Shown: positions 40,822-61,933 of the stretch, piece after piece
Layout: each line of letters begins with the position of its first letter
Position numbering within the stretch: position 1 is the first letter of the stretch
Assembly: GCA_965221605.1 (NCBI GenBank)
Contig: CBDCSK010000015.1
Location: 595,211-659,210 of the forward strand
Direction: 5' to 3'
Source of the DNA: Candidatus Aldehydirespirator sp.
GTDB taxonomy: Bacteria > Actinomycetota > Acidimicrobiia > Acidimicrobiales > Aldehydirespiratoraceae
DNA: 64,000 nucleotides
The notes under the pieces: model-generated
What the model saw: only the letters and a program-made list of their open reading frames with translations
What the model was told of the DNA's origin: nothing
Databases searched by the model: none
Position numbers and translations under genes: made by a program

Positions 40822-41046
40822 ATGGGCATGGACCTCAACATCAAGGGACTCGACGACGATGTGGGCAGGCGGCTGCGTGAGCAGGCCGAGGCCGCGGGGC
40901 TCTCGGTGCAGCAGTACGTGCGCGACCATCTGACGCGAGTCGCCTCGCGCCCTTCCCCGGCCGAGGTCGTCCGCGGCGCCGAGCCGATGACACGCGCCGA
41001 GTTCGAGGCCGTCCGGCGACGCCTGCGCGGGACCGATGGCCGATAG
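40822..41046 (+). CDS. vapB: RHH-type antitoxin (VapB/FitA-like)
   Basis: MGMDLNIKGLDDDVGRRLREQAEAAGLSVQQYVRDHL. Overlaps the downstream PIN gene by 11 nt. Confidence 0.7.
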   Translation: MGMDLNIKGLDDDVGRRLREQAEAAGLSVQQYVRDHLTRVASRPSPAEVVRGAEPMTRAEFEAVRRRLRGTDGR

Positions 41047-41410: not shown

Positions 41411-41454
41411 CCCCGACCGGCGCCGGAGCCTTCATCGGCTTCGGGCATCGCCAC

Positions 41455-43070: not shown

Positions 43071-44363
43071 ATGTCATCGGCCTCCTTCGGACAGGCGGGA
43101 CCGCTCACTCCGGACGGCTACCTAACGCGGGTCGCCGATGTCGTGGTGGGACGGGCGCTGGCGATCTCCCCGATCGTCGTGGTGGAGGGTGCCCGCGGCA
43201 CCGGCAAGTCGTGGACCGGCCTTCGCCATGCCCGCAGCCAGATCCGGCTCGACCGCGACCCCGGCGCCGTAGAGGCCGCCTCGCTGCGGCCTGGCGCGGC
43301 CCTGGAGGGCGACCGGCCGCGACTCGTCGACGAGTGGCAGCTCGCTCCGGGCCTGTGGAACTTCGCCCGCCATGTTGTGGACGCCGAGTCGGGCCGGGGC
43401 CGCTTCATCTTCACAGGATCGGCCCATCCGCCCGACGACCGCACCCGTCACTCCGGCGCGGGCCGCGTGGTGCGGGTGCGGATGCGGCCCATGTCGCTGG
43501 CGGAGTCGGGCGAGTCGTCGGGCGAGGTGTCTCTCGGCTCGCTGCTCGCCGGCGGCGACTGCTCGGCGGGGGCTTCTGCCGCCACCGTCGATGACGTGGT
43601 GGAGGCGCTGTGCCGGGGCGGCTGGCCTCGCCATCTGGGGATGGCGGTGGCGGACGCACAGTCGCTGTGCCGCGCCTACCTGCAGGAGGTTGCTCGGGCA
43701 GACATCGGCCGGCTGGGGCGGTCGCGGCACCGGCCCGAGGGCGTTCGGAGGCTGCTGTCCTCGCTGAGCCGCAACATCGCGACCGCGGCCGCGGCGAGCA
43801 CCCTGTCCGACGACATCGCCGGTGACGCCTCGCCTTCCCGGAACACGGTGGCGGAGTACCTGGAGGCGCTCAGGCGGGTGTTCGTGGTCGAGGACCTGCC
43901 GGCCTGGGCGGTGCACCTCAGGTCGCGGGCGCGGTTGCGGCGGTCTCCCAAGCGTCATCTGGTGGATCCTTCGCTGGCGGCGGCGACGCTGCGGGCTGGA
44001 CCTGAGCGCCTGTGGCGTGATGTCGGCTATCTGGGTCAGGCTTTCGAGTCGCTGGTGGTGCGCGATCTGCGGGTGTACGCGGAGGCGAACGACGCCGACG
44101 TGTGGCACTTCCGCGACAGCAACGGCCACGAGCTCGACGCCGTGGTGGCGCATGGCGACGGCCGCTGGCTGGCCGTGGAGGTCAAGCTGGGTTCCGGGGA
44201 GCGGCTGGACGAGGCCGCCCGGTCGCTCACGCGGGCCTGTGAACAGATCGACCCATCCAAGGTGGGCGAGCCTGCCAAGAAGCTGGTGATTACCGCCGCC
44301 GGCTACGGCTACGAGCGCCCCGACGGCGTGACGGTGCTGCCCATCACCGCCCTCGGCCCGTAG
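43071..44363 (+). CDS. AAA_14 / DUF4143-type ATPase (paralog 2)
   Basis: 430 aa. Walker A GARGTGKSW, LVDEWQ, C-terminal HELDAVV...AVEVKLG. Confidence 0.85.
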   Translation: MSSASFGQAGPLTPDGYLTRVADVVVGRALAISPIVVVEGARGTGKSWTGLRHARSQIRLDRDPGAVEAASLRPGAALEGDRPRLVDEWQLAPGLWNFARHVVDAESGRGRFIFTGSAHPPDDRTRHSGAGRVVRVRMRPMSLAESGESSGEVSLGSLLAGGDCSAGASAATVDDVVEALCRGGWPRHLGMAVADAQSLCRAYLQEVARADIGRLGRSRHRPEGVRRLLSSLSRNIATAAAASTLSDDIAGDASPSRNTVAEYLEALRRVFVVEDLPAWAVHLRSRARLRRSPKRHLVDPSLAAATLRAGPERLWRDVGYLGQAFESLVVRDLRVYAEANDADVWHFRDSNGHELDAVVAHGDGRWLAVEVKLGSGERLDEAARSLTRACEQIDPSKVGEPAKKLVITAAGYGYERPDGVTVLPITALGP

Positions 44364-44857
44364 CCCGCCTCGGCTGAGCCGGGAGAACGCACGACGATCC
44401 TCCGGCTCGTCGTCCCTGCCACCCGCCCGGGTCCGTGGCCTGCGGCCGTGGCCGTGGTCAGATCCGAGATGTTGGCGTTGATGACGCCAGCGGTCTCGAG
44501 CGCGACGATGAGAGCAGTCAGCTTCAGGCCCAGTTCGTCGATCTTCTCTTCCAGCTCCTCTATCTTCGTGTCTTGGGCCGCGAATCTGTCGTCCATCTTC
44601 ACTTCGAGACGCGTGATCCTGTCGTTGGTGTCGCTGATCCGTACGTTGGTGACGGTGAGCGAGAAGCCCAGCAGCACGACCACGACGGCGCCGAGTATGG
44701 CGGGCAGGGGGTCCTCCACGAGCTTGGCCCATGTGCTCGGCCTCACCGCCGGGGCGGATCCGGCCGGGGCAGGTTCCGGCAGTGTCGGTCGGGGGTCGGC
44801 CATAGGGTCGTTGTGTGGTTGCGGTTGGAGCGTCGCTGGTGGGAGGGATGCGGTCAC
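44309..44857 (-). CDS. Membrane-anchored coiled-coil protein (hypothetical)
   Basis: TM helix LPAILGAVVVVLLGFSLTV followed by the heptad-like ITRLEVKMDDRFAAQDTKIEELEEKIDELGLKL. The last ~18 codons run antisense through the ATPase 3' end, so the true C-terminus is uncertain. Confidence 0.45.
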   Translation of the reverse strand: MTASLPPATLQPQPHNDPMADPRPTLPEPAPAGSAPAVRPSTWAKLVEDPLPAILGAVVVVLLGFSLTVTNVRISDTNDRITRLEVKMDDRFAAQDTKIEELEEKIDELGLKLTALIVALETAGVINANISDLTTATAAGHGPGRVAGTTSRRIVVRSPGSAEAGYGPRAVMGSTVTPSGRS

Positions 44858-45011
44858 GGTGCCTCGCTTGAGGGGGCGGCGCGTGGCTCGGCGCTGTCGT
44901 GTGTGGATGACTGCCGCGTAGCCCGGCAGCGAGGCACAGTAGATGAAAATACACTACAACCTATGTTGTGTCAACTTTGTCGAGCCCGTCCGCACCCCTG
45001 CTCACAGTAGT

Positions 45012-45136: not shown

Positions 45137-46390
45137 GTGGAATACCGGCCCAGGATCGTCGATGGCATGATCGCGCAACGGCTGCAGGCCGCTCCGACCG
45201 TGGTGATCGAGGGAGTCCGCGGATCGGGCAAGACGGAGGCGGCGCGACAGCAGTCCCGCAGCGAGGTGAGGTTCGACGTGGACAGTCACGCCCGGGCCCT
45301 CGCCGAGATAGACCCCGCGGCCGTGATCGAAGGCCCGGAGCCGCGGCTGCTCGACGAATGGCAGCACGCCCCGGCCGTCTGGAACCACGTTCGCCGAGCC
45401 AGTGATGAGGGCCGCCGGCCGGGACGGTTCATCTTGACTGGCTCGGCAGTCCCGAGCGACGACGCCACCCGGCACAGCGGGGCCGGCCGCATCTCCCGGA
45501 TCCGCCTGCGTCCCATGACGCTCTTCGAGACGGGAGACTCCACCGGCACGGTGGGGCTGGGCAGCCTGTTGTCCTCGGGAGGTGCCGGGGGCCGGGCCCG
45601 GGAGGCGGGCCTCGCCGATCTGACCGAGGCTCTGTGCCGCGGGGGATGGCCCGCCAACCTCGGATCGGGCCCGGCCGCCGCCCAGCAGTACGTGCGGGAC
45701 TACCTCGACGAGATCCACAGGGCCGATGTTGGCCCGCCGGGCGGCCGCGGGCGCGACCCGGCGGGAATGCGGCGGCTGTTGAGGTCGCTCGCCCGCAACA
45801 CCGCGACCGAAGCGTCCCAAGCGACGCTGGCCGCGGACGCGGGCGGCGAACGGCCGCTGCACCGCGACACCGTCCGATCGTACCTCGATGCCCTCGAACG
45901 AGTGTTCGTGGTGGAGGACCAGCCCGCGTGGTCGGTCCGGCTGCGCTCGAGGTCGCGCCTGAGGCGGGCAAGCAAGCGCCACCTCGTCGACCCGTCGCTC
46001 GCGGCGGCGGCGCTGCGAGCCGGTCCGCACCACCTCCAGCGGGACCTGGAGCTGCTCGGACTGCTGTTTGAGTCGCTCGTGGTGCGCGACCTGCGGGTGT
46101 ACGCGGGAGCATGCGATGGCGAGGTCTTCCACTACCGCGACAACACTGGGCTGGAGACCGACGCGGTGGTGGAGACTGCTGGCGGGGCCTGGCTCGCCGT
46201 GGAAGTCAAGCTGGGCGGCGAGCGGGCCATCGAAGCCGCCGCCCGCAATCTGGTCGGGCTGCGCTCCAGGGTCGATACCGCCGCGGTTGGCGAGCCGGCC
46301 AAGCTGATCGTCATCACCGCCGTCGGCGGCTACGGCTACGACCGTCCTGACGGCGTCGCCGTCGTCCCCATCACCGCCCTCGGCCCGTAG
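45137..46390 (+). CDS. AAA_14 / DUF4143-type ATPase (paralog 3)
   Basis: 417 aa, GTG start. Walker A GVRGSGKTE, LLDEWQ, C-terminal LETDAVVE...AVEVKLG. The final residues and about 30 nt of 3' flank are shared with paralog 2. Confidence 0.85.
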   Translation: MEYRPRIVDGMIAQRLQAAPTVVIEGVRGSGKTEAARQQSRSEVRFDVDSHARALAEIDPAAVIEGPEPRLLDEWQHAPAVWNHVRRASDEGRRPGRFILTGSAVPSDDATRHSGAGRISRIRLRPMTLFETGDSTGTVGLGSLLSSGGAGGRAREAGLADLTEALCRGGWPANLGSGPAAAQQYVRDYLDEIHRADVGPPGGRGRDPAGMRRLLRSLARNTATEASQATLAADAGGERPLHRDTVRSYLDALERVFVVEDQPAWSVRLRSRSRLRRASKRHLVDPSLAAAALRAGPHHLQRDLELLGLLFESLVVRDLRVYAGACDGEVFHYRDNTGLETDAVVETAGGAWLAVEVKLGGERAIEAAARNLVGLRSRVDTAAVGEPAKLIVITAVGGYGYDRPDGVAVVPITALGP

Positions 46391-47833: not shown

Positions 47834-47942
47834 TGTCTGTGCGGCAAGAGAGTCTGGGACCCAGTGCCTGTCACACCGTCGCGCGATGATCGAACCCGTG
47901 GCTCGGACAGCCAGTTCGAGCTTCCAGCGAAAGGAGCCATGA

Positions 47943-49190
47943 ATGGATGAACTCACGATTGAGCGGCTCACTGAAGCCGTGGCGGGCGGAGCGGTCGCGC
48001 TCCGGTCGATCATGCGGCTACAGCCTGCTGATGGCCCGGGAGGCAAGGTCTTCCCGCCCACCTACGCAGTGGCTGACTCGGCAGAGAACAAGTACGCCGT
48101 TGAGGACCGCCAGGTCGGCGACCGGGTGGCGACGACGGTGCTGCTCGACTCGGTGGCGTCGCAGGCCAACCGAGCCGAGCTAGCCCTCCTGGATGGCTGG
48201 GAGGAGGGCGAACTGAGCTTCCCTGTGCCCTACGTGGACTTCGCCGGGGAGCCGGGTCTGAGCGACCTGGACCGCATCACCGTGCTCCAGGCACCCCACC
48301 GCCTGGCGGACGCGATCTTCCGGGACAGCTTGCTCGACGGCACGCTGTTCCGGCTCAGCGACATCGGCCGAGCGATCACGGACGCGCGCCCCGGCAACGC
48401 CACCGAGATGTTCCGCTACGCGCCCACGGCCCTGCTGTTCGGGCAGTGGGACTCGACAGGACCGAAGGGTGGTCTCGGATCGAAGTTCCAGCGCGCCTAC
48501 GTCTCGGAGGTCGTCGGGTTGGACGCTGAGACCGGAGTCAAGGTTGGCAGTCGCATCGATCCTCTCCAAATCGAGAAGCTGCCACCTGACAGGGTGGCCT
48601 ACAACCATCAGGACGAGACTCAGGTCTGGACGTTCGACAAGGACGAGGCAGCGAGCGGGACGGGAGGCAGGCCTGAACCCGCCTCGCGCGGCAGTGCGAG
48701 TGGTACCGCTGGACAACCGTCCAAGATCAACCACGGCAACATTGCGCCATCCATCGATTCGCGTGCCGGTGGTGTCACCATCTCGGAGGCTCGTCAGACC
48801 AGCGTGCTGTCTCTGGCGGCACTCCGGCGGCTGCGATTCGCTGGCCACAGTCGTGAGGCTCAGGTGGCAGCTAGGACGGCTGTCGCGGCCTTGGGCGTTG
48901 CGGCCATCACCTATGGCTACGAGGCCGATCACGATCTGCGGTCCAGATGCCTGCTCGTCCCCGAGCACGCTCCAGTCCTTGAGATGGTCGGCAGAGACGG
49001 CGAAGTACCGGCCGCTGTCGGCGTGGATCGGGAGTCCGCTGGGCGACTGCTGTCGGAGGCGTCGGCCCAGGCGGCCCGGGCCGGCATCGGCTGGTCTGAG
49101 GCCGAGATCGTCCTGAAGCCAGCGCCCAAACTGGTCGAGTTGCTGCGCCGCAGCCGCGACGTGGCGGCGCGCGAGCCCGCTGGGGAATGA
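47943..49190 (+). CDS. cas7: Type I-G (I-U) Cas7, Csb1 family
   Basis: 415 aa. AAAGGAG SD. Csb1 hallmarks KVFPPTYA...YAPTALLFGQWDSTG...IAPSI. Confidence 0.85.
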   Translation: MDELTIERLTEAVAGGAVALRSIMRLQPADGPGGKVFPPTYAVADSAENKYAVEDRQVGDRVATTVLLDSVASQANRAELALLDGWEEGELSFPVPYVDFAGEPGLSDLDRITVLQAPHRLADAIFRDSLLDGTLFRLSDIGRAITDARPGNATEMFRYAPTALLFGQWDSTGPKGGLGSKFQRAYVSEVVGLDAETGVKVGSRIDPLQIEKLPPDRVAYNHQDETQVWTFDKDEAASGTGGRPEPASRGSASGTAGQPSKINHGNIAPSIDSRAGGVTISEARQTSVLSLAALRRLRFAGHSREAQVAARTAVAALGVAAITYGYEADHDLRSRCLLVPEHAPVLEMVGRDGEVPAAVGVDRESAGRLLSEASAQAARAGIGWSEAEIVLKPAPKLVELLRRSRDVAAREPAGE

Positions 49191-49193
49191 CCG

Positions 49194-50954
49194 ATGACCG
49201 TCATAGAGGTGAGTTTCCTCACCGGTCGCTATAGCGCTACGGCGCACCACGATCGCCAAGAGCCCGAGTGGCCCCCACACGGTGCCCGGCTGTTTTCCGC
49301 GATCGTTGCTGTTTGGGCGGATTCCGACCCTCCCGAGGCGGTCGAGCGCGCCGCGCTTGAGTGGCTGGAAGCGCAGCCTCCTCCGCGCATCACAGCACCG
49401 GAGGCAGTCCGCCGCCGTGTGGTCAGCCACTTCGTGCCTGTCAACGACGCCGCCGTCGTTCCTGCGGCTCAGTACAAGCGTCGGGCGGACGAGGTGGAAG
49501 GTCTCATCGCTCAATGGGAGAACGAACTGGATGCGTCAGGAGGCGAGATCACGAAGAAGATCGAGAGGCTACAGACCAAGATCGACGCGAAGCGCAATGT
49601 CGATTCACTGGTGAGCGGCCCGAGAAACACGAATCCCGACTCCGCTGAGGCTCTGCTGCCCGACGGACGCGTCAAGAAGGAACGGTACTTCCCCTCGGTG
49701 ACGCTGGTAGAGACGGCGACCGGTGGCGCTTCGACGAAGTCCGCTCGCCTCGTGAGCGGCGAAGGCGCTCCCGCGACAGCCACGAAGCGACTTCCAGCGG
49801 TGGTCTATGCGTGGGACGACAGCCCTCCGGTTGGCGTTGCTCAGGCGCTCGACGGTCTCCTGGCTCGTGTCACTAGACTGGGCCACTCGTCGTCCCTGGT
49901 GTCCTGCCGCTTGCGTGATAGTGCGCCCGTCGCCACACACATGCCGGGCAACGGCGCGGAGATGCTGCGATGGGTCCGGCCCGGGCAACTCGTGGCGCTT
50001 CAAGATGAGCATCGGCAGCATCAAGCCATCAGGCCCAGGAGCCTTCCGTTTCGCGGGGTGCGATACAGCGCGACGGTGCTCGACAGCAGCGATTCGGCCG
50101 AGACGGCGACCCCGGCGACGGCAGGTGACTGGATCGTGCTCGAACTGCGGCCGCCCAGGAGCCGGCCCATGACCCGCACCGTTGAACTCACGCGGGTGTT
50201 GCGCAAGTCCGTGCTCAGCCATGTGCCGGACCCTCCGCCGGAGGGAGTCAGCGGACATAGGCACGACGGCAGGCCTACGACTTCACCCCACATTGCCTTC
50301 CTCGCGTTGCCCAACGTCGGTCACCAGCATGGCGACGGCCGGATCATGGGCATGGCCATCTCCCTTCCACACGACTTGGGCGGCGCGGCGCGGAACGCCA
50401 CTCTGCGCGGCATCGGCGCTTGGGAGAGCAAGCGCGCCGACCGGTCAATGCACCTGCAACTGGGACGCAACGGAACTGTCGAGATGCAAAGAGGCCACCC
50501 GCCCATTGCGCTTGTGAGCCTTCGCCCGGAGGTGTGGGCCCGCCCGTCCCGATGGTGGGCGTCGGCCACCCCTGTTGCACTGCCCGCGCATCCCGGCAAT
50601 CTCCGCAGAGCCGATCCCGTGGCCCGAGCGAAGGCTTGGGCGCGGGCCGAGGAGGCCGTCGCGAGGTCGTGTGAGCATGTCGGCCTGCCACGGCCAATAG
50701 ATGTGCGGGTGTCATTCGTGTCGCTCTTGACCGGGGCGCATCCGGCAGGCGACTTCCCCATCTTCAAGCAGGGCCGCCCAGAACACGGGGAAGTGGTTCG
50801 GCGACTCGTCCATGTAGCGGTCGAGTTCGCCGAGGAGGTACGCGGCCCGCTGATGCTGGGGAGCGGCCGATTCTTGGGCTTGGGACTCATGGGGCCCATG
50901 GACGATGACCCCGATCAGCACTCCGAGGACGCCGATGGAGCGAGCGATGAGTGA
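49194..50954 (+). CDS. cas5: Type I-G (I-U) Cas5-Cas6 fusion, Csb2 family
   Basis: 586 aa. N-terminal FLTGRYSATAHHDRQEPEWPPHGARLFSAIVA is typical of Csb2. C-terminal glycine-rich GSGRFLGLGL loop. Confidence 0.85.
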   Translation: MTVIEVSFLTGRYSATAHHDRQEPEWPPHGARLFSAIVAVWADSDPPEAVERAALEWLEAQPPPRITAPEAVRRRVVSHFVPVNDAAVVPAAQYKRRADEVEGLIAQWENELDASGGEITKKIERLQTKIDAKRNVDSLVSGPRNTNPDSAEALLPDGRVKKERYFPSVTLVETATGGASTKSARLVSGEGAPATATKRLPAVVYAWDDSPPVGVAQALDGLLARVTRLGHSSSLVSCRLRDSAPVATHMPGNGAEMLRWVRPGQLVALQDEHRQHQAIRPRSLPFRGVRYSATVLDSSDSAETATPATAGDWIVLELRPPRSRPMTRTVELTRVLRKSVLSHVPDPPPEGVSGHRHDGRPTTSPHIAFLALPNVGHQHGDGRIMGMAISLPHDLGGAARNATLRGIGAWESKRADRSMHLQLGRNGTVEMQRGHPPIALVSLRPEVWARPSRWWASATPVALPAHPGNLRRADPVARAKAWARAEEAVARSCEHVGLPRPIDVRVSFVSLLTGAHPAGDFPIFKQGRPEHGEVVRRLVHVAVEFAEEVRGPLMLGSGRFLGLGLMGPMDDDPDQHSEDADGASDE

Positions 50955-53900
50955 TCTCACAGCCGGTGATTTCGACAGGTATTTCCGGGACGTTCACGGC
51001 CAACCGCCCTATCCGTGGCAGAGTCGCCTTACCCGGAAGGTGCTCGATGAGGGCCGATGGCCCGACGTGATCGACCTGCCTACGGGCGTCGGCAAGACCG
51101 CTGTGCTCGACACGGCGATCTTCGCACTTGCGGCCCGTCCTGACATCTCGCCCCGCCGGATCGTATTCGTCGTCGACCGGCGCATCGTGGTGGATCAGGT
51201 CTATGAGCGCGCCCGGTGCATCAGGGACAAGATCGCTGCGGCGACCGGCGGTGTCCTGGCAGACGTCCAGATGCTCCTGCGCGAGTTGACGGACGCCGAG
51301 CCCCTAGGGGTCGCGGCTCTGCGAGGTGGCGTCCCGATCGATGGCGAATGGGCACTACGGCCCGAGCAGCCGTGGGTGATCGTGTCCACCGTCGATCAGT
51401 TCGGTTCGCGCCTGCTCTTCAGGGGCTACGGCGTCAGCCACAGGATGCGCCCCGTTCACGCGGGCCTCGCAGGCAACGACTGTCTCGTGATCTTGGACGA
51501 GGTGCATCTGAGCCGGGCCTTCGCCGCGACACTGCGGGACGCGTCATCTGACGGTGCGGTGCCCTTGATGCGCTCGGTTGGTGGTGGCTTGCCGCGCCGC
51601 TTCCAAGTCGTGGAGATGTCCGCCACGCCCGCAAGTGAGTCCGGCTGGCGGTTCGAGTTGGAGGATTCGGACCTCGACCAGGCGCAGACGCTCAAGCAGA
51701 TCGCAACGGCCCTGAAGCGGGCGAAGCTGGTTGAGATAGGCGGCACCCGTCCACCGCACGAGTCGGTGCCCAAGAAGGTCTTGGAGATCGTCAAGCAGGA
51801 ATTGCCAGAGGATGAGTCCTTGAACAGTAGTCTTGAACCCGCGCAATTGGGAGACGGCGAGCGAAGCGTGGGCGTCATCGTCAATCGCGTCCAGACCGCC
51901 CGGCTGACCTGCGACACGCTGAGAGAGGCGGGCATCGAGACCTACCTGGTGACGGGCCGAATGCGCCCGCTCGACAGGGAACAAGTCCTGCAAGACATCA
52001 GCGAGAGTGTCGATCCGGATCGGAGCGAGCCGCTGGATCAGCGCACTGTGGTTGTCGCCACCCAAGCGATCGAGGTCGGTGCCGACTTCAGCTTCGACGC
52101 ACTCATCAGCGAGGCCGCCCCCATCGACAGCCTGTGCCAACGATTGGGGCGCCTCGACCGACGAGGCACTCTCGCCGCACGGCGCGGCGGTCCAGCCCGA
52201 TGCTGGATTCTCGGCGTGGCCTCGGCCTTGAACCCCAAGCGTCCCGATCCGGTCTACGGAGATGCCGCGCGGCGCGCATGGGAGGAACTGCAGACTCGCG
52301 CCGCAGATGGCGAGATCGATGTCGGCCCCGGTGCTGGCCTGCTTGCCACTCTTGGTCCTGACGCGCATGCACCGAAGCCGAAAGAGCCCTTGCTGCTTCC
52401 GACCCACATCGAAGCCTGGTCTCAAACCAGCCCTGAGCCCGTCGTGGACCCGCCGATCGCGGAGTTCCTGCACGGCAAGGAGCGACAGCAGGAGCCTGAC
52501 GTTTCTGTCGTGTGGCGCTGGGATCGTACGCCCAGGGCGCTTGAGTTGGTTCCGCCCCGGCCGGCCGAGTTCCTGTCGGTTCCGATCTCCGCGGTCACGA
52601 GGTGGCTCCGCGGCTCCTCGGAGGTGCCAGTGTCAGACACCGCGGTGATGCCTCCGCACGAGGAGGGTCGGAGCGCGGGCCGCGCTCATGGCGACAGCCA
52701 GTCAGCGGTCCTGGCGCGGCAACGAGTGGTGCGCTGGGCGAGACACCAAGGCGCGACGACGGAACGAGTGGAGCATGTCGATGACATCAACCCCGGAGAT
52801 GTGATCGTCGTCGATCCGATGCTGGGCGGCCTGCACAACGGCACCTGGGATCCGACATGCCGCCCCGCCTCTCGGACAGCCGAGTCCAGGGGCGACGATC
52901 CGCCACCGGTTGAGGACTTGGGTGACGAGGCGCAAGTCGTTCACGGAAGGCGAGACGGCGATCTGCGTGGTGTACGGGCAACGCTGCGGCTGGATCAGCG
53001 TCTACGCGAGCGGATTGTGTCTGAGGGTGGGCGACTGCCTCCGGGTCCAGCTGATGAACAGGATGCTGAGTTGCCCCTACGCGGGGTCGTCAAGGACTGG
53101 CTCTCGGAGATGCAGAGCCTGCCGTCTCTTCCCGACTGGATGAAGCGGGTCGTCGGGCACTTCGTTGCCGAAGAACGGTTCGACATTGAGACGGTCGAGT
53201 CCGAATCGGAGTCTCACTACTACGTACTGGTAGGCCGCTCAGTCGATCCGTCCGCTCTCGACGAGTCTGACGACGAGCCGTCCCTTACCGGCACCGAGAC
53301 GCCCCTTCGCTGCCATCTCGCCGGTGTCGGAGCTCGGGCTGCGGACTACGGGTCGCGTCTCGGCCTGTCCACCGAGGTTGTGGCGGACTTGCGTCTCGCC
53401 GGGGAGTTGCACGACCTGGGCAAGGTCGACCCGCGCTTCCAGGCCCAGCTCCACGGCCACGATCCGGTGCGGATGGCTGAGTCGGAAGCCACGGGGGAGC
53501 CGCTGGCCAAGTCGCTCCGGCGTGTTCGCCCGCATCCTCACAAGTGGCCACCGGTCCGTCATGAGTTCAGCAGCGTGGCACTGGCGCAGAGTGACGAGGC
53601 TTTGCTCAAACGTGCTCATGATCGTGATTTGGTTCTTCATCTCGTGGGAACCCATCACGGCTTCGGAAGGCCACTGCCGACGATCAGATCGGACGACAGG
53701 CCTCAGCAGCTGACGGCGGTCGGTTGGCTCGACGACGAGAGGTTCCGCCTCCGCGCTGCCGGCGGGTCTCATCAAGTCGAGGAGAGTGGCGGCCCTGTGT
53801 CCATGACCTTGTCTTCAGACCTCGCCGAGACAGCGCTCGCCCTGGAGATGGCGGACCGGTTCTGGCGATTGCAGGAGCGCTACGGGCATCACGGCCTCGC

Positions 53901-53967
53901 CTGGCTTGAAGCCATCATTCGTCTAGCCGACCACCAGCAGAGCGCGGAGGAGGCACGACGTGGCTGA
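50947..53967 (+). CDS. cas3: Cas3 helicase with C-terminal HD nuclease domain (type I-G architecture)
   Basis: Walker A LPTGVGKTAV, motif II ILDEVH, C-terminal HD (HLAGV...ELHDLGKVDPRFQ...HH). Start chosen at ATG 50947 (8-nt overlap with csb2); alternatives at 50905 and 50935. Confidence 0.9.
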   Translation: MSDLTAGDFDRYFRDVHGQPPYPWQSRLTRKVLDEGRWPDVIDLPTGVGKTAVLDTAIFALAARPDISPRRIVFVVDRRIVVDQVYERARCIRDKIAAATGGVLADVQMLLRELTDAEPLGVAALRGGVPIDGEWALRPEQPWVIVSTVDQFGSRLLFRGYGVSHRMRPVHAGLAGNDCLVILDEVHLSRAFAATLRDASSDGAVPLMRSVGGGLPRRFQVVEMSATPASESGWRFELEDSDLDQAQTLKQIATALKRAKLVEIGGTRPPHESVPKKVLEIVKQELPEDESLNSSLEPAQLGDGERSVGVIVNRVQTARLTCDTLREAGIETYLVTGRMRPLDREQVLQDISESVDPDRSEPLDQRTVVVATQAIEVGADFSFDALISEAAPIDSLCQRLGRLDRRGTLAARRGGPARCWILGVASALNPKRPDPVYGDAARRAWEELQTRAADGEIDVGPGAGLLATLGPDAHAPKPKEPLLLPTHIEAWSQTSPEPVVDPPIAEFLHGKERQQEPDVSVVWRWDRTPRALELVPPRPAEFLSVPISAVTRWLRGSSEVPVSDTAVMPPHEEGRSAGRAHGDSQSAVLARQRVVRWARHQGATTERVEHVDDINPGDVIVVDPMLGGLHNGTWDPTCRPASRTAESRGDDPPPVEDLGDEAQVVHGRRDGDLRGVRATLRLDQRLRERIVSEGGRLPPGPADEQDAELPLRGVVKDWLSEMQSLPSLPDWMKRVVGHFVAEERFDIETVESESESHYYVLVGRSVDPSALDESDDEPSLTGTETPLRCHLAGVGARAADYGSRLGLSTEVVADLRLAGELHDLGKVDPRFQAQLHGHDPVRMAESEATGEPLAKSLRRVRPHPHKWPPVRHEFSSVALAQSDEALLKRAHDRDLVLHLVGTHHGFGRPLPTIRSDDRPQQLTAVGWLDDERFRLRAAGGSHQVEESGGPVSMTLSSDLAETALALEMADRFWRLQERYGHHGLAWLEAIIRLADHQQSAEEARRG

Positions 53968-54886
53968 TTCCGACTGCACGGTGTTGCGGGGCCTACCGGG
54001 GGACAATCCGCTGGGTTTCTTGGCTGCCTTGGGAGTTCAGGTGGCCCTGGCAGCGCAAGGTGACGAACACACCTTGCACTGGACCGACGAGCCGATTCCC
54101 CATCCGGTTGTATCGCCTTCCATCGGGCTAGATTGGATCGCCCGAGCTGCTGTCGGCGTTGCTCAGGAATGGCTCAGTGGCCCGGTGCTGTCAACGAGCA
54201 TAAGTCAAACGCTCAAGATGGATGCGGAGGAAGTTCTGGACTATCTGAAGCGATGTAGAGGTCATGGAAGGAACGGCGTTCTTGCCCTCTGCCTAGTGGC
54301 GGAGGGTAGTCGATATTCGAGCGGGAATGCACTTGGAAAGTCAAAGCCCACTGAGTTCTACTTCACCGCAGCCCGCCAGCAGTTTCTTGCCATGGCGAGA
54401 GAAAGGCTCCAGAGTACGTCTGAGGAACAAATTGTCATGGACATCGTGGCCCCGTGGAAGTATCAGTGCGATGACAACAATTCACTGATGTGGGATCTTA
54501 TCTCTGATAGGCATCATGCGCACAGCTCAGCAGATCCCACCGACAAGACGTTAAACCCCAAAGTGACGAATGCGGGCGCAGAGGCTGTCGCGATTCTCGG
54601 CTTGAGGCTCTTTCCTTGCTTTGGGTCAGACGGATCAATATTGACGACAGCGATTCATGGGAGAGGCAGGAACAAGCGTTTTCTCTGGCCTCTGTGGACC
54701 GTTCCCGCTAGTCCCCGCGCCGTGTCTTCGTTGGTGACACACGTTGCACCTTCGAGTGACGATAGAAGCCGATTGGATTGGTATCACGGATGGGGCATCT
54801 CGCTCGTAATGGAGTCTCAGATTCGAAGCCGCGGACAGGGATTTGGGACCTTCGGGCCGCCTAAGGTTGTCTGGCAGCGTGACTGA
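53960..54886 (+). CDS. Small Cas8u-type large-subunit candidate (Csb3/Csx17-N-terminal-like)
   Basis: 308 aa, GTG start overlapping the cas3 stop. N-terminal LRGLPGDNPLGFLAALGVQVAL resembles Cas8u/Csx17 N-termini. It occupies the large-subunit slot. Its GC is markedly lower than the flanking cas genes. Confidence 0.6.
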   Translation: MADSDCTVLRGLPGDNPLGFLAALGVQVALAAQGDEHTLHWTDEPIPHPVVSPSIGLDWIARAAVGVAQEWLSGPVLSTSISQTLKMDAEEVLDYLKRCRGHGRNGVLALCLVAEGSRYSSGNALGKSKPTEFYFTAARQQFLAMARERLQSTSEEQIVMDIVAPWKYQCDDNNSLMWDLISDRHHAHSSADPTDKTLNPKVTNAGAEAVAILGLRLFPCFGSDGSILTTAIHGRGRNKRFLWPLWTVPASPRAVSSLVTHVAPSSDDRSRLDWYHGWGISLVMESQIRSRGQGFGTFGPPKVVWQRD

Positions 54887-56516
54887 CGTTCCGGAACTCG
54901 TTCCGGCTCGGATGATCAACGAGTTCGAGTACTGCCCGCGGCTGTTCTACCTGGAGTGGGTGCAGTCGCGCTTTGAGCACAATCAGGACACGATGGAGGG
55001 CATATACGTCCATCGGGCCGTCGATGCCGGCGGGGGCAGGATGGGCGAGGCTGGCGATCCGCCGTTCAGGAAGGCCAGGTCTGTCGAGCTGAGCTCTCAG
55101 CGGCTCGGGCTGATAGCGAAGGCCGACATCGTCGAGCAGCGGGACGGCAAGGTCGTGCCCGTCGAGGTCAAGAGGGGCCGTCCGCCTCTGCACGGGCCCG
55201 CCTGGATGCCCGAGAAGGTGCAGCTTTGCACGATCGGGCTCCTGCTGCGCGACAACGGCTACCAATGCGCGGAGGGTCAGATCTACTTCGCCGAGACCCG
55301 CAAGCGGACCACGATCCCCCTCGACGACATGCTGGTGGCGCACACGCTCCAGCTCGTCGAGCAGCTCCGCGAGGTCGCGTCTGATCCCCGTGCCCCGCCG
55401 CCGCTGGTGGACAGCCCGAAGTGCCCGAGATGCTCGCTGGTGGGCATCTGTCTGCCCGACGAGACGAACCTCCACGCAGGCCGGAGCATGGCTGCTCCCC
55501 GCCGTCTCACGCCGCGCGACTCGGCGGCGCGTCCGCTGTATGTGACCGAGCAGGGCGCCCGGGTCGGCATCCGCTCCGGCCGCGTCGTGGTCAGCAAGAA
55601 CCGCGAGGAGCTCCAGCAGCTCCGCCTCATCGACGTCTCGCAGATCTCGCTCTACGGCAACGTCCAGGTGAGCAGCCAGATGATGCGGGCCGCGTTCCGC
55701 GAGGGGATACCGGTCTGCTGGTTCTCCTACGGAGGGTGGTTCCAGGGCATTGCCGAGGGGCTGCCGTCCAAGCATGTGGACCTACGCCGCCGCCAGGTAG
55801 CGATCGCGGCTCAAGCGGGCCTGCCGATCGCCCAGTCGATGATCGAGGGCAAGCTGCGGAACTCGCGGACATTCCTGAGGCGCAACGCCCGCTCCGACGT
55901 CAAGACGGTGCTGGAGCAGCTCAAGTCGCTGGCTGACGCCGTGGGCAACAGCGAGTCGATCGAGAGCTTGTTGGGAATGGAGGGCACCGGTGCCCGTCTG
56001 TACTTCTCGCGGTTCTCCTCGATGATCCGCGACCAGAGCCTGGGGCACTTCGACTTCAACGGACGCAATCGACGACCGCCCAAGGATCCCGTCAACTGCC
56101 TGCTGTCGTACGTGTATGCGCTCCTCACGAAGGATCTGACCGCGGTGGCCATCGCCGTCGGGTTCGACCCGTACCTGGGGGTCTTTCACCGGCCGCGGTT
56201 CGGCCGGCCGGCGTTGGCGCTGGACCTCGCTGAAGAGTTCCGCCCGCTGGTCGCCGAGTCGGTGGTGATCAACGTCATCAACAACGGCGAGATCAGCGAG
56301 AGGGACTTCCTGACCCGGGCCGGAGGGGTCGCGCTCACCCAGGACGGCAGGCGATCGGTGCTCGCCGCCTACGAGCGAAGGCTCGATACCGAGGTCACTC
56401 ATCCCACGTACGGGTATCGGATCACCTATCGGCGTGTCTTCGAGGTCCAAGCCCGTGTGCTGGCCGCCCATCTGCTGGGGGAGGTCCCCTGCTACACCCC
56501 CTTCATGACCAGGTAG
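54879..56516 (+). CDS. cas1: Cas4-Cas1 fusion protein
   Basis: N-terminal RecB-like Cas4 (INEFEYCPRLFYLEW...CPRCSLVGICLP Cys cluster) followed by Cas1 (YVTEQGARVG...GMEGTGARLYF...DLAEEFRP). The GTG overlaps the upstream stop (GTGACTGA). Confidence 0.9.
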   Translation: MTDVPELVPARMINEFEYCPRLFYLEWVQSRFEHNQDTMEGIYVHRAVDAGGGRMGEAGDPPFRKARSVELSSQRLGLIAKADIVEQRDGKVVPVEVKRGRPPLHGPAWMPEKVQLCTIGLLLRDNGYQCAEGQIYFAETRKRTTIPLDDMLVAHTLQLVEQLREVASDPRAPPPLVDSPKCPRCSLVGICLPDETNLHAGRSMAAPRRLTPRDSAARPLYVTEQGARVGIRSGRVVVSKNREELQQLRLIDVSQISLYGNVQVSSQMMRAAFREGIPVCWFSYGGWFQGIAEGLPSKHVDLRRRQVAIAAQAGLPIAQSMIEGKLRNSRTFLRRNARSDVKTVLEQLKSLADAVGNSESIESLLGMEGTGARLYFSRFSSMIRDQSLGHFDFNGRNRRPPKDPVNCLLSYVYALLTKDLTAVAIAVGFDPYLGVFHRPRFGRPALALDLAEEFRPLVAESVVINVINNGEISERDFLTRAGGVALTQDGRRSVLAAYERRLDTEVTHPTYGYRITYRRVFEVQARVLAAHLLGEVPCYTPFMTR

Positions 56517-56520
56517 GACT

Positions 56521-56820
56521 ATGGCCGCTGGAAGGACGCGCTATTTGGTGAGCTACGACATCAGCGACGCCAAACGGCTCAGGCAGGTGCACAAGACCAT
56601 CAAGGCCTATGGCTGGCCGATGCAATACAGTGTCTTCATCTGCGATCTCGATTCCGTCGAGCTGCTGGTCCTGAAGCAGGAGGTGGGTACGATCATCCAC
56701 CACGGTGAGGATTCCGTCGCCTTCGTGAATCTCGGTCCTCCAGCCAACCGGGGCCGGGAGTGCTTCGACTTCATGGGGATCCGGTCGGAGCTCCCGACCT
56801 CTGGTCCCACGATCATCTGA
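56521..56820 (+). CDS. cas2: Cas2
   Basis: 99 aa. YLVSYDISDAKRLRQVHKTIKAYGWPMQYSVF is the typical Cas2 N-terminal beta-alpha motif. Confidence 0.9.
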   Translation: MAAGRTRYLVSYDISDAKRLRQVHKTIKAYGWPMQYSVFICDLDSVELLVLKQEVGTIIHHGEDSVAFVNLGPPANRGRECFDFMGIRSELPTSGPTII

Positions 56821-56990
56821 TGCGAGCGCTAGGTTGAGCCCCCGAGTCCCAAGGACCGCTCGAAGCCTTGCGGCGCAAGGCAAACCGCAGCTTGACAATT
56901 CACCGAACGGACCTTCGAAGCCCTTCGCTTCTTGCACCGCTCGCAAGGCTCCGCGAAAGGGGAGTTCAGAGACCCCGAATCAAGCAAGCG

Positions 56991-57340
56991 GTTTGGCCGG
57001 GCAATTGCCCGGCCCTCCATTGAAGGGACGACTTCGCGCTTGGAGAACAGACGACCGGGCGCGTTTGGCCGGGCAATTGCCCGGCCCTCCATTGAAGGAT
57101 GACCGGAGCCGCTGCCAGCGGGTTTGGCCGCAATTGCCCGATTGAAGGCTGCCATTCTCGCGTTTGGCCGGGCAATTGCCCGGCCCTCCATTGAAGGCAC
57201 CCCCAGATGGACGCGACGCTGCGAAAGCTGCTGGTTTGGCCGGGCAATTGCCCGGCCCTCCATTGAAGGCTCGCCGGCCTCGACAGGGTCGCCTCCGCGG
57301 TGGGGTTTGGCCGGGCAATTGCCCGGCCCTCCATTGAAGG
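56991..57340 (+). CRISPR. CRISPR array, repeat family A (36 nt: GTTTGGCCGGGCAATTGCCCGGCCCTCCATTGAAGG), 5 intact plus 1 internally deleted repeat
   Basis: Intact repeats at 56991-57026, 57063-57098, 57162-57197, 57234-57269 and 57305-57340. Degenerate 27-nt repeat at 57122-57148. Spacer lengths 36, 23, 13, 36 and 35 nt. Confidence 0.9.
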
Positions 57341-57353
57341 ATGGTCCTGGGAT

Positions 57354-57462
57354 GCCCGGCCCTCGGGCCGGGCGAGGATTGAAACAGGCGTGGATCCTGT
57401 TGTGGCTTCCATCGATCCGAAGGTGCAGCGCCCGGCCCTCAGGGCCGGGCGAGGATTGAAAC
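57354..57462 (+). CRISPR. CRISPR array, repeat family B (core GCCCGGCCCTC(A)GGGCCGGGCGAGGATTGAAAC), 2 repeats
   Basis: Cores at 57354-57385 and 57430-57462, differing by one loop nucleotide. About 40-44 nt lie between them. Only 13 nt separate the last A repeat from the first B core. Confidence 0.8.
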
Positions 57463-57606
57463 TCGGTCGCCTTGCATGACTTCCTGCCGGCCTCACTTTG
57501 GCTCGGTCGCGAACGTTGGCAGAAGAGAAACTGATCACCGCCAGCCGCTTGATCCAGTCGCTTATACTTTTGTCTTAGAAACTGTAAACACACTCGGGAA
57601 GTCACC

Positions 57607-59385
57607 ATGACCTTTCAGTTTCTGGGGCCCGACCCGCTGGAGCACCAGATCACCGAGACGCTGCGGCGCCTGTCCGAGGGGCGACCCCCGGCTCAGATCG
57701 AGAGCGCCCGGGTAGATGTCAAGGAGGAGCCGGGACGGCGCCAGGGCCGACGCGCGGTCCCCGGCGCGGAGAAGAACGAACGGGCGGCTGCCTATCTCGC
57801 CGGCGAGATGGCCTGCATGGCGAACACCGCCGGGGGCGGTGCGATCATCCTGGGAATCGCCGACGACGGCCAACGCATCGGCACCGTGCTCGACGCCCAG
57901 TGGCTGCGCGGCCGCATCTTCGAGCTCACCCGGAGGGAACTCACCGTGGACGTGCGCGAGGCCGTCCTTGACGGCTGCCGGATCCTGGTGCTCGCAACTC
58001 ACGAGGCAATTGCGCCTGTCCGTTACAAGGGGCGCATCAGGTGGCGCGTCGATGACAGCTGCGTGGAGGTCGACGCCTCGACATGGCACTCAGGCCGGCT
58101 GCATCGCACCGGGTTCGATTGGTCGGGCCAGCCGTCCGGCCACACGTTGGAGGACGTCCGGCCGGTTGCCGTGGAACTGGCGAGCCGATACCTGCGGTCG
58201 AGGGCAGGCCCCTCAGACTTGGAACTGGCGGAGGCTGCGCCGCCCGACCTGATCCGCCGGTTGAACCTGGTCGACGGCGAAGGCAGGCTCAGCAACGCCG
58301 GCAGCCTGCTGTTCGTGGCCACCCCCTGCATCGGCATCGACTACATGCGACGAGACGTGAGTGGCGGTGACAGCCGGCACCGGGTCCGTGGCTCGGGTCC
58401 GCTCCTTGAGCAGATCTTCGAGGCCGAGAGGGCCGGTGAGTCCGCCAACCCCACGTTCCATGTCGCACACGGGTTCGCTCACGGCCAGATGCGGGTGATC
58501 CCACCGAGAGCGCTGCGGGAGGCGATAGTCAACGGCGTCGTCCACCGCGACTGGTTGTCGCCGCAGCCCACCACGGTGGAGCACGTGGGCGAGACGCTGA
58601 CCGTCACCTCTCCGGGCGGCTTCGTCGGCGGCATCGGCCCCTCGAACATCATCTCCCATCCAGCGGTGCCGCGGCACCGCCGCCTGGCCGAGGCTGCGGC
58701 CTCTCTCGGCATCGCCGAACGCCAGGGCATCGGCATCGCGAGGATGACGCGCGACATGCTCGCAATGGGCCGGCCCCGGCCGGTGATCGAGGAGATTGCG
58801 GGACCCTACGTGCGCGTCACGCTGCTGGGCGGCGAGCCCGACCCGGAGATGGTCCGCCTGGTATCGGACATCGTGCCGCCAGAGCTGGCGGGATCGGTGG
58901 ACGCGCTGCTGCTGATCGACGAGTTGTGCGCCCGGGGCTGGGTCGATGCCGACGCGGGCGCCGCGCCCCTTCAGCGTTCGGTCGTCGAGGCCTCGGATGC
59001 GATCGAGCGGCTGGCGGCGGCCAGGCTCGGCGACGCGGGCGATGCGAGCGGTCGGCGACCGCTGGATCCTGCGCCGGGTGTGATCGCCGCCGTCACCGGC
59101 GCTCCGGCTGGCAGACACCCCGCGTACCGTCTCAGCGACGGGTCGCGGCATCGGATCGGCCACCGCTGCGCTCGGCTCCAATCGCCCGAGGGCCGAGACG
59201 AGCTCATCCTCGATTGGGCCAGAGGCCGGGGGCGGGTCTCGAGCACCGAGGTGGCCGACCTGATCGACGTCAGCGTCCCGACCGCTGGCCGCAGGCTCGC
59301 CGCCCTAGCAGCGGACGGGCTGCTCGCACCGTCCCGTCCGAACGGCGCCGGCCGAGGCTTCCACTACCTGCCATCGCCCGACTAG
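57607..59385 (+). CDS. AlbA_2 (Schlafen-like divergent AAA) plus HATPase_c_4-type putative DNA-binding/transcriptional regulator
   Basis: 592 aa. N-terminal VDVKEE...AGEMACMANTAGGGAIILGI (AlbA_2 pattern), central REAIVNGVVHRDW, C-terminal wHTH-like (STEVADLIDVSVPTAGRRLAAL). Confidence 0.7.
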   Translation: MTFQFLGPDPLEHQITETLRRLSEGRPPAQIESARVDVKEEPGRRQGRRAVPGAEKNERAAAYLAGEMACMANTAGGGAIILGIADDGQRIGTVLDAQWLRGRIFELTRRELTVDVREAVLDGCRILVLATHEAIAPVRYKGRIRWRVDDSCVEVDASTWHSGRLHRTGFDWSGQPSGHTLEDVRPVAVELASRYLRSRAGPSDLELAEAAPPDLIRRLNLVDGEGRLSNAGSLLFVATPCIGIDYMRRDVSGGDSRHRVRGSGPLLEQIFEAERAGESANPTFHVAHGFAHGQMRVIPPRALREAIVNGVVHRDWLSPQPTTVEHVGETLTVTSPGGFVGGIGPSNIISHPAVPRHRRLAEAAASLGIAERQGIGIARMTRDMLAMGRPRPVIEEIAGPYVRVTLLGGEPDPEMVRLVSDIVPPELAGSVDALLLIDELCARGWVDADAGAAPLQRSVVEASDAIERLAAARLGDAGDASGRRPLDPAPGVIAAVTGAPAGRHPAYRLSDGSRHRIGHRCARLQSPEGRDELILDWARGRGRVSSTEVADLIDVSVPTAGRRLAALAADGLLAPSRPNGAGRGFHYLPSPD

Positions 59386-59956: not shown

Positions 59957-61102
59957 GTGCGCTCTCCCAATCCGTTCTCCCCGTCGTTCGGAATCAGCCC
60001 ACCTGTCCTGGCGGGGAGACGGGACGTTCTCAACAGCTTCGACACCGTGTTCGACAGCGTTCGCAGCCCCAGCTACGCCACGCTGCTCTGGGGCCTCCGG
60101 GGCACAGGGAAGACGGTTCTGCTGAACGCGGTCGAGGACCGCGCCAGATCCGAGGGCTGGCTGGTCGTCTCGGCTGCGGCCGTCGGCCGCCGGGGACTGG
60201 TCGACCAGATCCGCCGCAAGGCGTCGAGGCTGCTCGCTTCGCTTCGGAGCGAGCACGAGGGTCCGCCGCGGCGCGCCGTCACCGGCGTGTCGATCATGGG
60301 CACGGGAGTCCAGGTCGAGGGTGCGCCTGCGTCGGATCATGCCGAGCCTGCGACCGCCGACCTGGAGACGACCCTGGCGGCGTTGGGGGAGTTGCTCGCT
60401 GAGCGCGGCACGGGGCTGCTGGTGACGATCGACGAACTGCATGTGAGCGAGACCGACGAGATCAGGGAGTTCGGCAGCGTCTTCCAGCTTGTGTCGCGCC
60501 GGGCGGAGCGGCCGGTGGCGTTCGTGGGCGCGGCGCTGCCGGAGTTGGAGGACCGGCTGATGGCCGGTGATGCCAGCACGTTCCTGCAGAGGTGCCTCCG
60601 CCACGAGATCGGCAACCTGCGCCCGTCGGAGGCCGCGGTCGCGCTGCGAGAGCCGATCGAGGAGGCCGGCGGCCGAATCGGCCACGACGCGCTTCAAGTC
60701 GCGGTGGAGGCTTCCAGGGGCCAGCCGTACCTCGTGCAGCTGATCGGCTCGTACGTCTGGGACGACGCCGAGGACCTGGCCCGAGGAGTGACCGCTCACG
60801 AGGCCCGCCGCGCCATCGCCGATGCGACCGAGCAGTTCGGCCGACATGTTCACGGCCCGGTGTGGAATCGCCTGTCGGACCTCGACAAGAGGTTTCTGGC
60901 GTCGATGCTTGCCGACTCTTCGACCAGCGCGATTGCCGACATCGGCCGGCGCTGGGGACACAGCCCCCGCAGCCTCAGCACCTACCGCCAACGCCTGCTC
61001 GCCTCGGGGCTGATCACCTCCATCGGCCGCGGCCGGGTGGCCTTCGCAGACTCCACGGTGCGCCGGTATGTAGAAGCTCAAGCAGTCGTGGAGGGCTGGT
61101 AG
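59957..61102 (+). CDS. AAA-type ATPase (ORC/Cdc6-like or AAA_16-like P-loop) with C-terminal winged-helix domain
   Basis: 381 aa. Walker A GLRGTGKTVL, Walker B LLVTIDELH. C-terminal LDKRFLASMLADS..IADIGRRWGHSPRSLSTYRQRLLASGLI. Confidence 0.75.
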   Translation: MRSPNPFSPSFGISPPVLAGRRDVLNSFDTVFDSVRSPSYATLLWGLRGTGKTVLLNAVEDRARSEGWLVVSAAAVGRRGLVDQIRRKASRLLASLRSEHEGPPRRAVTGVSIMGTGVQVEGAPASDHAEPATADLETTLAALGELLAERGTGLLVTIDELHVSETDEIREFGSVFQLVSRRAERPVAFVGAALPELEDRLMAGDASTFLQRCLRHEIGNLRPSEAAVALREPIEEAGGRIGHDALQVAVEASRGQPYLVQLIGSYVWDDAEDLARGVTAHEARRAIADATEQFGRHVHGPVWNRLSDLDKRFLASMLADSSTSAIADIGRRWGHSPRSLSTYRQRLLASGLITSIGRGRVAFADSTVRRYVEAQAVVEGW

Positions 61103-61219
61103 CCGGGGGTCGGCGTGGGCGTTGCTATTGTGAGTTGTGATGTGTTTTGATGGTCTCCCGGTTGTGGGGCGGAGCGCCGGGGGGTAGTGTCGCCTGTGGC
61201 GAATCGGAGGTGCGCGCCT

Positions 61220-61933
61220 ATGGGTTCGATTGTGACGGGGCCTCCCAAGGTGGAGGTCTACTATCCGGAGGGGCCCCAGGTGCCGGAGGGGAATCTGCCG
61301 ACGCGGCGGCGCATGGAGTTGGTGATCGCGCTGCGGCACTGGTTCGACCGGCGCGGCGACGCCGGGGCGTGGGTGTGCTGTGACATCAACGTCTACTACA
61401 AGCAGGGCGACCCCAAAGTGGTGGTGGCGCCCGACGTGGCCGTGGCGTTCGGGGTGGACGCCGCCGCGCAGGAGACCGAGAGCACCTTCCGGGTGTGGGA
61501 TGCGGGCGCGGCACCGTGCTTCGCGCTGGAGATCGCGTCGCCGTCGACGGTGCGCGCCGACCTGCATGTGAAGCCGGCCAAGTACGCCGATTTGGGGGTG
61601 GAGGAGTACTGGCGGCTCGACCCCACCGGCGGGGAGCTGCTGGACCCGCCGCTACAGGGCGAGAGACGCGAGTCGGGGCGCTGGGCAGGGATCTACGTCG
61701 CCGCCGAGGCCGGCGGCGGGCTGCGGGCCCGCAGCGGCGTGCTGGGCCTGGACCTGTGCTGGCAGCCGCCCAAACTGCGGCTGTGGGACATCGCCGAGGG
61801 CGTGTGGCTCCCCGACCCCGACGACGACGTCTCCGCCCGGCTGGCCGCGGAGAGACGGGCGTCTGCCGCCGAGGCAGAGCTCGCCGAGATTCGAGCCCGC
61901 CTCCGCGGCACCCTCGAGGAGCCCAGCGAATAG
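61220..61933 (+). CDS. Uma2-family (DUF820) PD-(D/E)xK endonuclease-like protein
   Basis: ATG 61220 after GGAGG. Motifs VAPDVAV...ALEIASPST...KPAKYADLGVEEYW. Confidence 0.75.
   Translation: MGSIVTGPPKVEVYYPEGPQVPEGNLPTRRRMELVIALRHWFDRRGDAGAWVCCDINVYYKQGDPKVVVAPDVAVAFGVDAAAQETESTFRVWDAGAAPCFALEIASPSTVRADLHVKPAKYADLGVEEYWRLDPTGGELLDPPLQGERRESGRWAGIYVAAEAGGGLRARSGVLGLDLCWQPPKLRLWDIAEGVWLPDPDDDVSARLAAERRASAAEAELAEIRARLRGTLEEPSE

Follow-up and report, generated by a model that had tools for sequence, protein, structure and literature searches.

Two CRISPR-DR9 repeats at the end of a type I-G CRISPR array: a probable relic of another array in a fluid defence island of Acidimicrobiia

The CRISPR array in the window (the whole stretch of 64,000 nt analysed here) begins with repeats of a type I-G system and ends with two repeats of a different family, CRISPR-DR9. 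We consider it probable (about 0.7) that the two distal units are an approximately 180-nt relic of a DR9-family array that became joined to an ordinary I-G array and is carried along as a passive passenger. The repeats of the leader side are called A and the two distal repeats B1 and B2.

The type I-G operon and its array

An intact type I-G operon is located directly upstream of the array on the same strand, and all of its scores exceed the NCBIfam cut-offs. The assignment is based on Csb2 and Csb1 together with Cas3g and the Cas4/Cas1 fusion, each over its cut-off, and the profiles of Cas3g and Cas4/1 were covered over their full length. The genes and the leader are:

47943..49190, + strand: csb1 (cas7g), 415 aa; TIGR02570, 68 bits (cut-off 38), and PF09617; length as in L185
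49194..50954, + strand: csb2, a Cas5-Cas6 fusion, 586 aa; TIGR02165, 293.5 bits (cut-off 45), and PF09609
50905..53967, + strand: cas3g helicase-nuclease, 1020 aa; TIGR02621, 712.6 bits (cut-off 400), positions 1-854 of 854
53960..54886, + strand: type I-G 'Cas3-extension family' protein, 308 aa; NF049934, 230 bits
54843..56516, + strand: cas4g/cas1g fusion, longest open reading frame of 557 aa; NF049935, 766.3 bits (cut-off 560)
56521..56820, + strand: cas2, 99 aa; TIGR01573 and PF09827
56821..56990, + strand: leader of the I-G array, 170 nt, from blastn homology to relatives

The database gene call of cas4g/cas1g is 534 aa, which would put its start at 54912, and the database protein is 100% identical over these 534 aa. 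The product of csb2 is the presumed pre-crRNA endonuclease, a role taken over from PMC9638904. The lengths of the cas genes in the window are those called in L182 and L185, two close strains in which the full operon is called and which carry the same gene set, the 308-aa NF049934 protein included. In blastn, the alignment to relatives is continuous over cas1, cas2 and the leader and reaches into the first repeat, at 81-90% identity. Among the open reading frames scanned between 43 and 57 kb, no NCBIfam or Pfam match to Cas8g (Csx17 or Csb3) was found. The I-G operons of the relatives are likewise without a recognisable Cas8g and contain the 308-aa NF049934 'Cas3-extension' protein instead (window 47943-56820). 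Csb1 is 415 aa long, yet Cas7g profiles match only residues ~25-196. In comparison with L003 and L001, DNA identity was ~70% over the effector genes (47867-54108), 81-86% over the adaptation genes and the leader (54806-57340), and 85-90% over the flanking core genes. This gap between the effector and adaptation genes suggests that the two halves of the cas operon may have mosaic histories.

Positions 56991-57462 form a tandem run of repeats on the + strand, with five perfect A repeats, one damaged A repeat, a junction and two B repeats:

56991..57340, + strand: native I-G array of five perfect 36-nt A repeats, three full spacers and one damaged A unit
56991-57026, 57063-57098, 57162-57197, 57234-57269 and 57305-57340, + strand: perfect A units, GTTTGGCCGGGCAATTGCCCGGCCCTCCATTGAAGG
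57027-57062, 57198-57233 and 57270-57304, + strand: full A spacers
57122-57148, + strand: damaged A unit, with deletions of 2 nt and 7 nt when aligned to A
57341..57348, + strand: A/B junction, 8 nt left over, or 13 nt when B1 is taken to begin with GCCCGG at 57354
57349..57385, + strand: B1, a DR9-family repeat with its 5' five nucleotides diverged; Rfam RF01322, 38.6 bits, E 4e-7
57386..57424, + strand: single spacer of the B remnant, 39 nt
57425..57462, + strand: B2, an intact DR9-family repeat of 38 nt; Rfam RF01322, 49.7 bits, model positions 1-37 of 37
57463..57521, + strand: DNA between B2 and the resumption of homology to the AlbA_2 gene region of the relatives

The first-pass annotation had described two distinct repeat families in one tandem run, a damaged A unit with 2-nt and 7-nt deletions between spacers of 23 and 13 nt, and an 11-mer common to both families. 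The coordinates and sequences of both families agree with this description, the alignment of the damaged unit to A reproduces its deletions, and the 11-mer, GCCCGGCCCTC, is present in A and B. The spacers on either side of the damaged unit are truncated, to 23 nt and 13 nt. The array has suffered deletions, as the first-pass annotation stated. Hairpin folding gave no fold for the damaged unit. Four small deletions are grouped within 108 nt around A3. One correction was needed. The B repeat had been given as 32-33 nt, but the full-length CRISPR-DR9 alignment extends it to 37-38 nt; with these boundaries the B spacer is ~39 nt and the A/B junction, given before as 9-13 nt of spacer, is 8-13 nt.

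The 20-nt palindrome of A occurred five times against 0.04 times expected by chance, and the B 21-mer GGGCCGGGCGAGGATTGAAAC twice against 0 (pattern count). For a match as long as the shared 11-mer, the chance probability at the local GC content is ~0.002, a rough estimate that was not computed by a tool. Hairpin energies were -19.1 kcal/mol for A, -21.4 kcal/mol for B1 and -24.7 kcal/mol for B2 (z -4.4). B1 and B2 differ from one another by a loop indel and by the 5' five nucleotides. There are neither intermediates between A and B nor chimeric A/B repeats. The DNA of 57463..57521 held no repeat-like sequence, and the alignment score for a third, decayed B unit after B2 was at chance level.

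The two repeat families and their distribution

A search with Cas4/1 provided a set of 80 Acidimicrobiia MAG loci with 62-92% identity, many of them with sponge-associated record names. In ~70 of the 80 loci the array begins ~170 nt after cas2, and most of the other sequences stop within ~700 nt of cas2. Nearly all of the consensus repeats recovered belong to one family of 35-37 nt, with the consensus G-T-T-Y-G, an 8-bp stem, a 4-nt loop, the return stem and CCTYCATTG(AA/CG)GS. The A repeat of the window has the features of this family, namely a length of 36 nt, a G5-C24 stem base, the tail C-C-Y-Y-CATTG-(AA/CG)-G and a position ~170 nt after cas2. Across 34 distinct repeats the hairpin was paired in 99.3% of cells, and 7 of the 8 stem pairs were changed on both sides; none of 500 shuffles reached the observed score and no slid register came near it. 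The window repeat is identical to the repeats of L007 and of L180-L186, the closest strains, whose Cas4/1 proteins are 95-96% identical and whose arrays have 1 to 90 units. In the array trailers of the relatives the A repeat decays gradually or is truncated in the ordinary way, with a truncated end unit for example in L009. The A units reached no Rfam family, the best match, DR16, scoring 17.4 bits where 35 are required. The type I-G repeat of M. barkeri ends in ...ATTGAAGC, an A-like tail (PMC10504553). These sequence comparisons indicate that A is the native cognate repeat of the whole Acidimicrobiia I-G clade and ancestral there. The earlier view that the leader-side A is a derived repeat is not upheld, because A is conserved after cas2 in ~70 of the 80 relatives and in the closest strains and has a covarying stem.

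In several loci a full I-G operon is followed by a single repeat and no spacer, just after cas2 (L183:3136-3179, L188, L189, L190, L204 and L205). Such single-repeat loci were found in Acidimicrobiia and Nitrospira, and sister contigs have 4-90 units; complete collapse of arrays appears to be frequent.

The B units belong to CRISPR-DR9 (RF01322). B2 scored 49.7 bits at 57425-57462 over the full model, above the gathering score of 45 bits, and B1 scored 38.6 bits at 57350-57385 (E 4e-7), below it. The exact 21-nt 3' part of B was found in 40 genome stretches, including long arrays of Dehalococcoidia, with the repeat GTAGCGCCCGGCCTTCGGGCCGGGCGAGGATTGAAAC, and of Rhodocyclaceae/Sulfuritalea. In L102 and L084 a DR9 array directly follows Cas8c/Cas7c/Cas4/Cas1c/Cas2, a type I-C operon. 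The link of the B ending to I-C and I-G repeats drawn in the first-pass annotation is supported. Geobacter carries the type I-G namesake genes. The repeat of G. metallireducens, GTAGCGCCCGCCTACATAGGCGGGCGAGGATTGAAAC, has the same family consensus as B (PMC2700814).

B-like units were absent from the 80 relatives, from 50 array trailers and from 7 loci of close strains, and DR9-like trailers occurred at about the background rate among the 50 trailers lying inside the loci compared. Searches of the 64-kb window with Cas8c and Cas7c from L084 and L102 (tblastn) gave nothing significant and detected no remnant of these I-C effectors; the only window matches to I-C proteins were the I-G Cas4/1 and Cas2. 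The AlbA_2 gene was also considered as a marker of a former I-C site and was discarded, an array lying beside 0 of 40 homologous loci.

Pattern scans for an A-like tail followed by a DR9 tail one unit later returned four real hybrids, of which L161 and L163 come from Nitrospira MAGs, and L169 and L173 from metagenome contigs whose repeats are of the same type:

L161:2917-2998, - strand: Nitrospira-type hybrid
L163:4666-4753, - strand: Nitrospira-type hybrid
L169:1374-1442, - strand: Nitrospira-type hybrid
L173:732-810, + strand: Nitrospira-type hybrid

All four arrays share the I-G-type repeat GATTCCACGGC...GCCGTGGCCCCATTGAAGC and end in one or two CRISPR-DR9 units; for L161 and L163, Cas4g/Cas1g and Cas2 were confirmed on the upstream side. 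The layout of L169 mirrors that of the window: a DR9 unit comes after a truncated spacer and is followed, one spacer on, by a decayed DR9 unit. The DR9 unit of L161 follows a full-length spacer and keeps the phase of the array. In L163 an I-E-like repeat, GTGTTCCCCACGCGAGTGGGGATGAGCCG, follows the DR9 unit, and this extra repeat, together with the independence of the hybrids, fits a pattern of stacked relics. The downstream flanks of the four hybrids show no homology to one another. The other Nitrospira I-G arrays examined end without a DR9 unit; DR9 ends are thus sporadic, and this is more in keeping with relics than with something the array requires.

Origin of the DR9 units

The array lies in a variable segment. 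Relatives keep the core genes up to ~39.6-40.8 kb and the MFS transporter gene near 63.2 kb at 85-90% identity. The segment from 41425 to ~57521 is missing in L124, where a gap of only ~55 nt separates the match to window 40802-41424 from that to the AlbA_2 region, which starts at window position 57558; because the flanks are directly joined in that strain, the intervening 16 kb are variable. They contain two DUF4143 ATPases, the I-G module, both repeat families and 59 nt of further DNA, and homology to the relatives resumes at 57522 (L122) or 57558 (L121 and L124). Gene order differs as well. An AAA_16 ATPase gene, which in the window is downstream of the array, is upstream of the I-G operon in L003, L001 and L013; L186 has the order AlbA_2, cas genes and array, IS21 and DUF4143, and the window DUF4143, cas genes and array, B units and AlbA_2. 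In L185 and L186 the arrays have IS elements next to them. The locus lies in a fluid defence island in which the position of the I-G module varies among strains. The different placement of AAA_16, the different order in L186 and the gap in L124 together indicate that the B fragment lies exactly at a novel junction.

Several other features of the island were recorded. The array is flanked by genes for an AlbA_2/HATPase_c_4/HTH protein, an AAA_16 ATPase and a Uma2-family endonuclease (57607-59385, 59957-61102 and 61187-61933), which are typical cargo of defence islands and whose order differs between strains. Two tandem paralogous AAA_14/DUF4143 ATPase genes (43071-44363 and 45137-46390) lie within the variable segment, and a 91%-identical copy of the second is found downstream of the array in L186. 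A conserved element of ~440-580 bp with a 139-aa open reading frame, which had no Pfam match in the strains' gene calls, is located beside I-G loci (window 44408-44983, L182:87-664 and L185:1110-1607). It is present on both sides of the cas-array module in L015 (443-873 and 12010-12472) and in L021 (2197-2638 and 17006-17470), hinting that the module may be bounded by repeats.

For the order of events, the mechanism of deletion and the persistence of the relic, we infer the following. The DR9 fragment would derive from a CRISPR locus once present in the defence island or from a piece of a foreign array, and illegitimate recombination or deletion would have joined it to the I-G array, truncating one spacer and possibly also the 5' end of B1. 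By the established mechanism, every new spacer copies the repeat next to the leader; with an I-G leader in front of a B array it is thus B, and not A, that would spread. The A repeats must have arrived together with the I-G leader and cas genes. New spacers, if still acquired, would enter at the leader beside A1, each copying an A repeat, and the B pair may persist because it is heterologous and thereby spared from the repeat-repeat recombination that deletes A units. The damage in the A array, with a broken unit and truncated spacers, resembles the damage at the join to B. Deletion and recombination within and between arrays have been reported (bioRxiv 10.1101/2022.05.19.492656, also citing Kupczok et al. 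2015). Since intermediates are lacking and no chimeric repeat is seen at the 11-mer, neither a gradual switch nor a microhomology join made the junction; a microhomology join at the shared 11-mer had been considered and was excluded for want of a chimeric A/B repeat. Without I-C genes or pseudogenes nearby, a former resident I-C locus is postulated rather than seen, and no donor array sharing the B spacer was found among ~200 loci compared or in viral and metagenome contigs. Two observations run counter to a relic. Both B hairpins are perfect and B2 is near the DR9 consensus, so that decay is below what is expected of an old relic, and the DR9 unit of L161 is in phase as a terminal repeat, which random deletion does not predict. 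The first-pass annotation had offered a 'fusion of two arrays' as one explanation, and this is supported as a fair description.

Alternatively, B could be co-transcribed with A and processed by the I-G Csb2, so that the B spacer still yields a usable crRNA. B would then either preserve immune memory of a system since replaced or supply the last guide with a proper 3' hairpin. We regard such a functional hybrid as unlikely. The two repeats are alike in geometry, with a 5' flank of 4-5 nt, a GC stem of 8-10 bp and a 12-nt tail containing ATTGAA. In both, the GC hairpin of -19 to -25 kcal/mol lies 12 nt from the repeat end. Csb2 of T. sulfidiphilus has its cleavage site 4 nt 3' of the hairpin, so that a handle of 8 nt remains, and its binding is to the hairpin and not to this handle (PMC9638904). 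Judged from sequence, the 8-bp covarying stem and 12-nt tail of the array would fit such cleavage, with predicted cuts between CTCC and ATTGAAGG in A and between GAGG and ATTGAAAC in B, and a mature B-spacer RNA would start ATTGAAAC-AGGCGTGG. Cross-processing of B by the I-G Csb2 is by this analogy conceivable. The B hairpins are intact and no terminator-like site is present between A6 and the B units. DR9-family repeats are used in Geobacter (PMC2700814), and DR9 ends are kept in the four Nitrospira-type arrays with their unrelated downstream flanks. However, the last two bases of the handle differ (AAAC in A, AAGG in B), the B stem is the strand-swapped A stem and therefore differs in sequence from base to loop, and the A6-B1 unit holds a guide of only 8-13 nt. 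B is also absent from all 87 clade relatives and from most Nitrospira I-G arrays examined and is therefore not needed. The first-pass annotation had proposed protospacer searches; made with the first 24 nt of spacers 1, 4, 5 and B, they found none in viral contigs, and the B spacer had no match in metagenome contigs either, which also counts against its use. Shared spacers and self-targets were not found among the ~200 loci compared or in the window.

It is rather improbable, but a further extension of the same idea, that foreign DR9 trailer repeats in general are not inert, with the I-G Csb2 processing them through the shared geometry of a hairpin and a 12-nt tail and inherited guides staying usable. 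If true, guides from a displaced I-C or DR9 system would survive replacement of the cas module, and the recurrence of intact DR9 units at the ends of I-G arrays in two phyla would be explained. The sporadic recurrence in Acidimicrobiia and Nitrospira raises the question of whether a Cas6-type enzyme accepts a related foreign repeat.

An assembly artefact, in which the B segment and perhaps the broken A unit are chimeric or mis-polished from the array of another organism, is very improbable. The source is evidently metagenome-assembled, the relatives all being MAGs and the window's own protein lying on a contig of 686 kb, the four small deletions fall within 108 nt of one another around A3, and co-resident Dehalococcoidia MAGs have very similar DR9 repeats. 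On the other hand, the B segment is only ~180 nt long with Acidimicrobiia DNA on both sides in a plausible island context, an overlap of 11 nt is too short to drive misassembly, comparable hybrids occur in four independent assemblies of another phylum, and truncated end units are also present in relatives such as L009.

We give still less weight to a regulatory or addiction mini-array, in which B1, the spacer and B2 would be a CRISPR-derived element with a spacer that partially matches a promoter, giving an antitoxin RNA like CreA or a crRNA-like RNA for autoregulation of cas. The layout of two repeats and one spacer, with degenerate repeats, is like that of the CreTA modules described in PMC9458426. 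A seed-type match of the spacer to a nearby promoter was not seen within the window, where no other site matches at least 12 of the first 14 bases of the B spacer, and blast with the full spacer gave only chance matches of up to 11 nt, none near the cas promoter or beside the element. Moreover, the repeats are of another family than those of the resident system, and the element is absent from all relatives.

The least probable explanation, a switch of the repeat or of Cas6 specificity in situ from a first B array to later A repeats, was also put forward in the first-pass annotation and is rejected: B does lie at the older end, and architecture and 11-mer are common to both families, but A, whose stem covaries, is the ancestral repeat of the clade, intermediates are absent, duplication of the leader repeat would perpetuate B, the junction is a truncated spacer and not a graded series, and the arrays of close strains consist of A alone, their decayed trailers included.

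If the B units are a relic, as we favour, the locus would illustrate the rebuilding of CRISPR loci in defence islands: the protected trailer end of a native array can preserve the fossil of another system. For annotation it would be a caution against reading every switch of repeat family inside an array as a switch of specificity.

Comparison with known systems

Like the type I-G systems of T. sulfidiphilus and M. barkeri, the window has the signature genes, a 36-nt repeat, a GC hairpin and a 12-nt tail, and its tail ...ATTGAAGS resembles the M. barkeri repeat end ...GAATTGAAGC (PMC10504553). It differs from characterised type I-G systems by having no recognised Cas8g, a 308-aa 'Cas3-extension' protein and a long Csb1, by having csb1 first, and by a damaged, unusually short array whose last two repeats are from a foreign family. 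The B units share an identical 21-nt 3' part with the CRISPR-DR9 I-C arrays of L084 and L102. Unlike usual DR9 arrays, they are two non-identical copies with no leader of their own and are attached to an I-G trailer. As in degenerate array trailers, the oldest end of the array keeps sequence that is no longer renewed, but here the end units are well-preserved repeats of another family joined through a truncated spacer. In the Nitrospira-type hybrids, 36-nt ...CCCCATTGAAGC repeats are followed by one or two DR9 units, so that these arrays, like that of the window, end in DR9, although they belong to a different phylum and have different stems.
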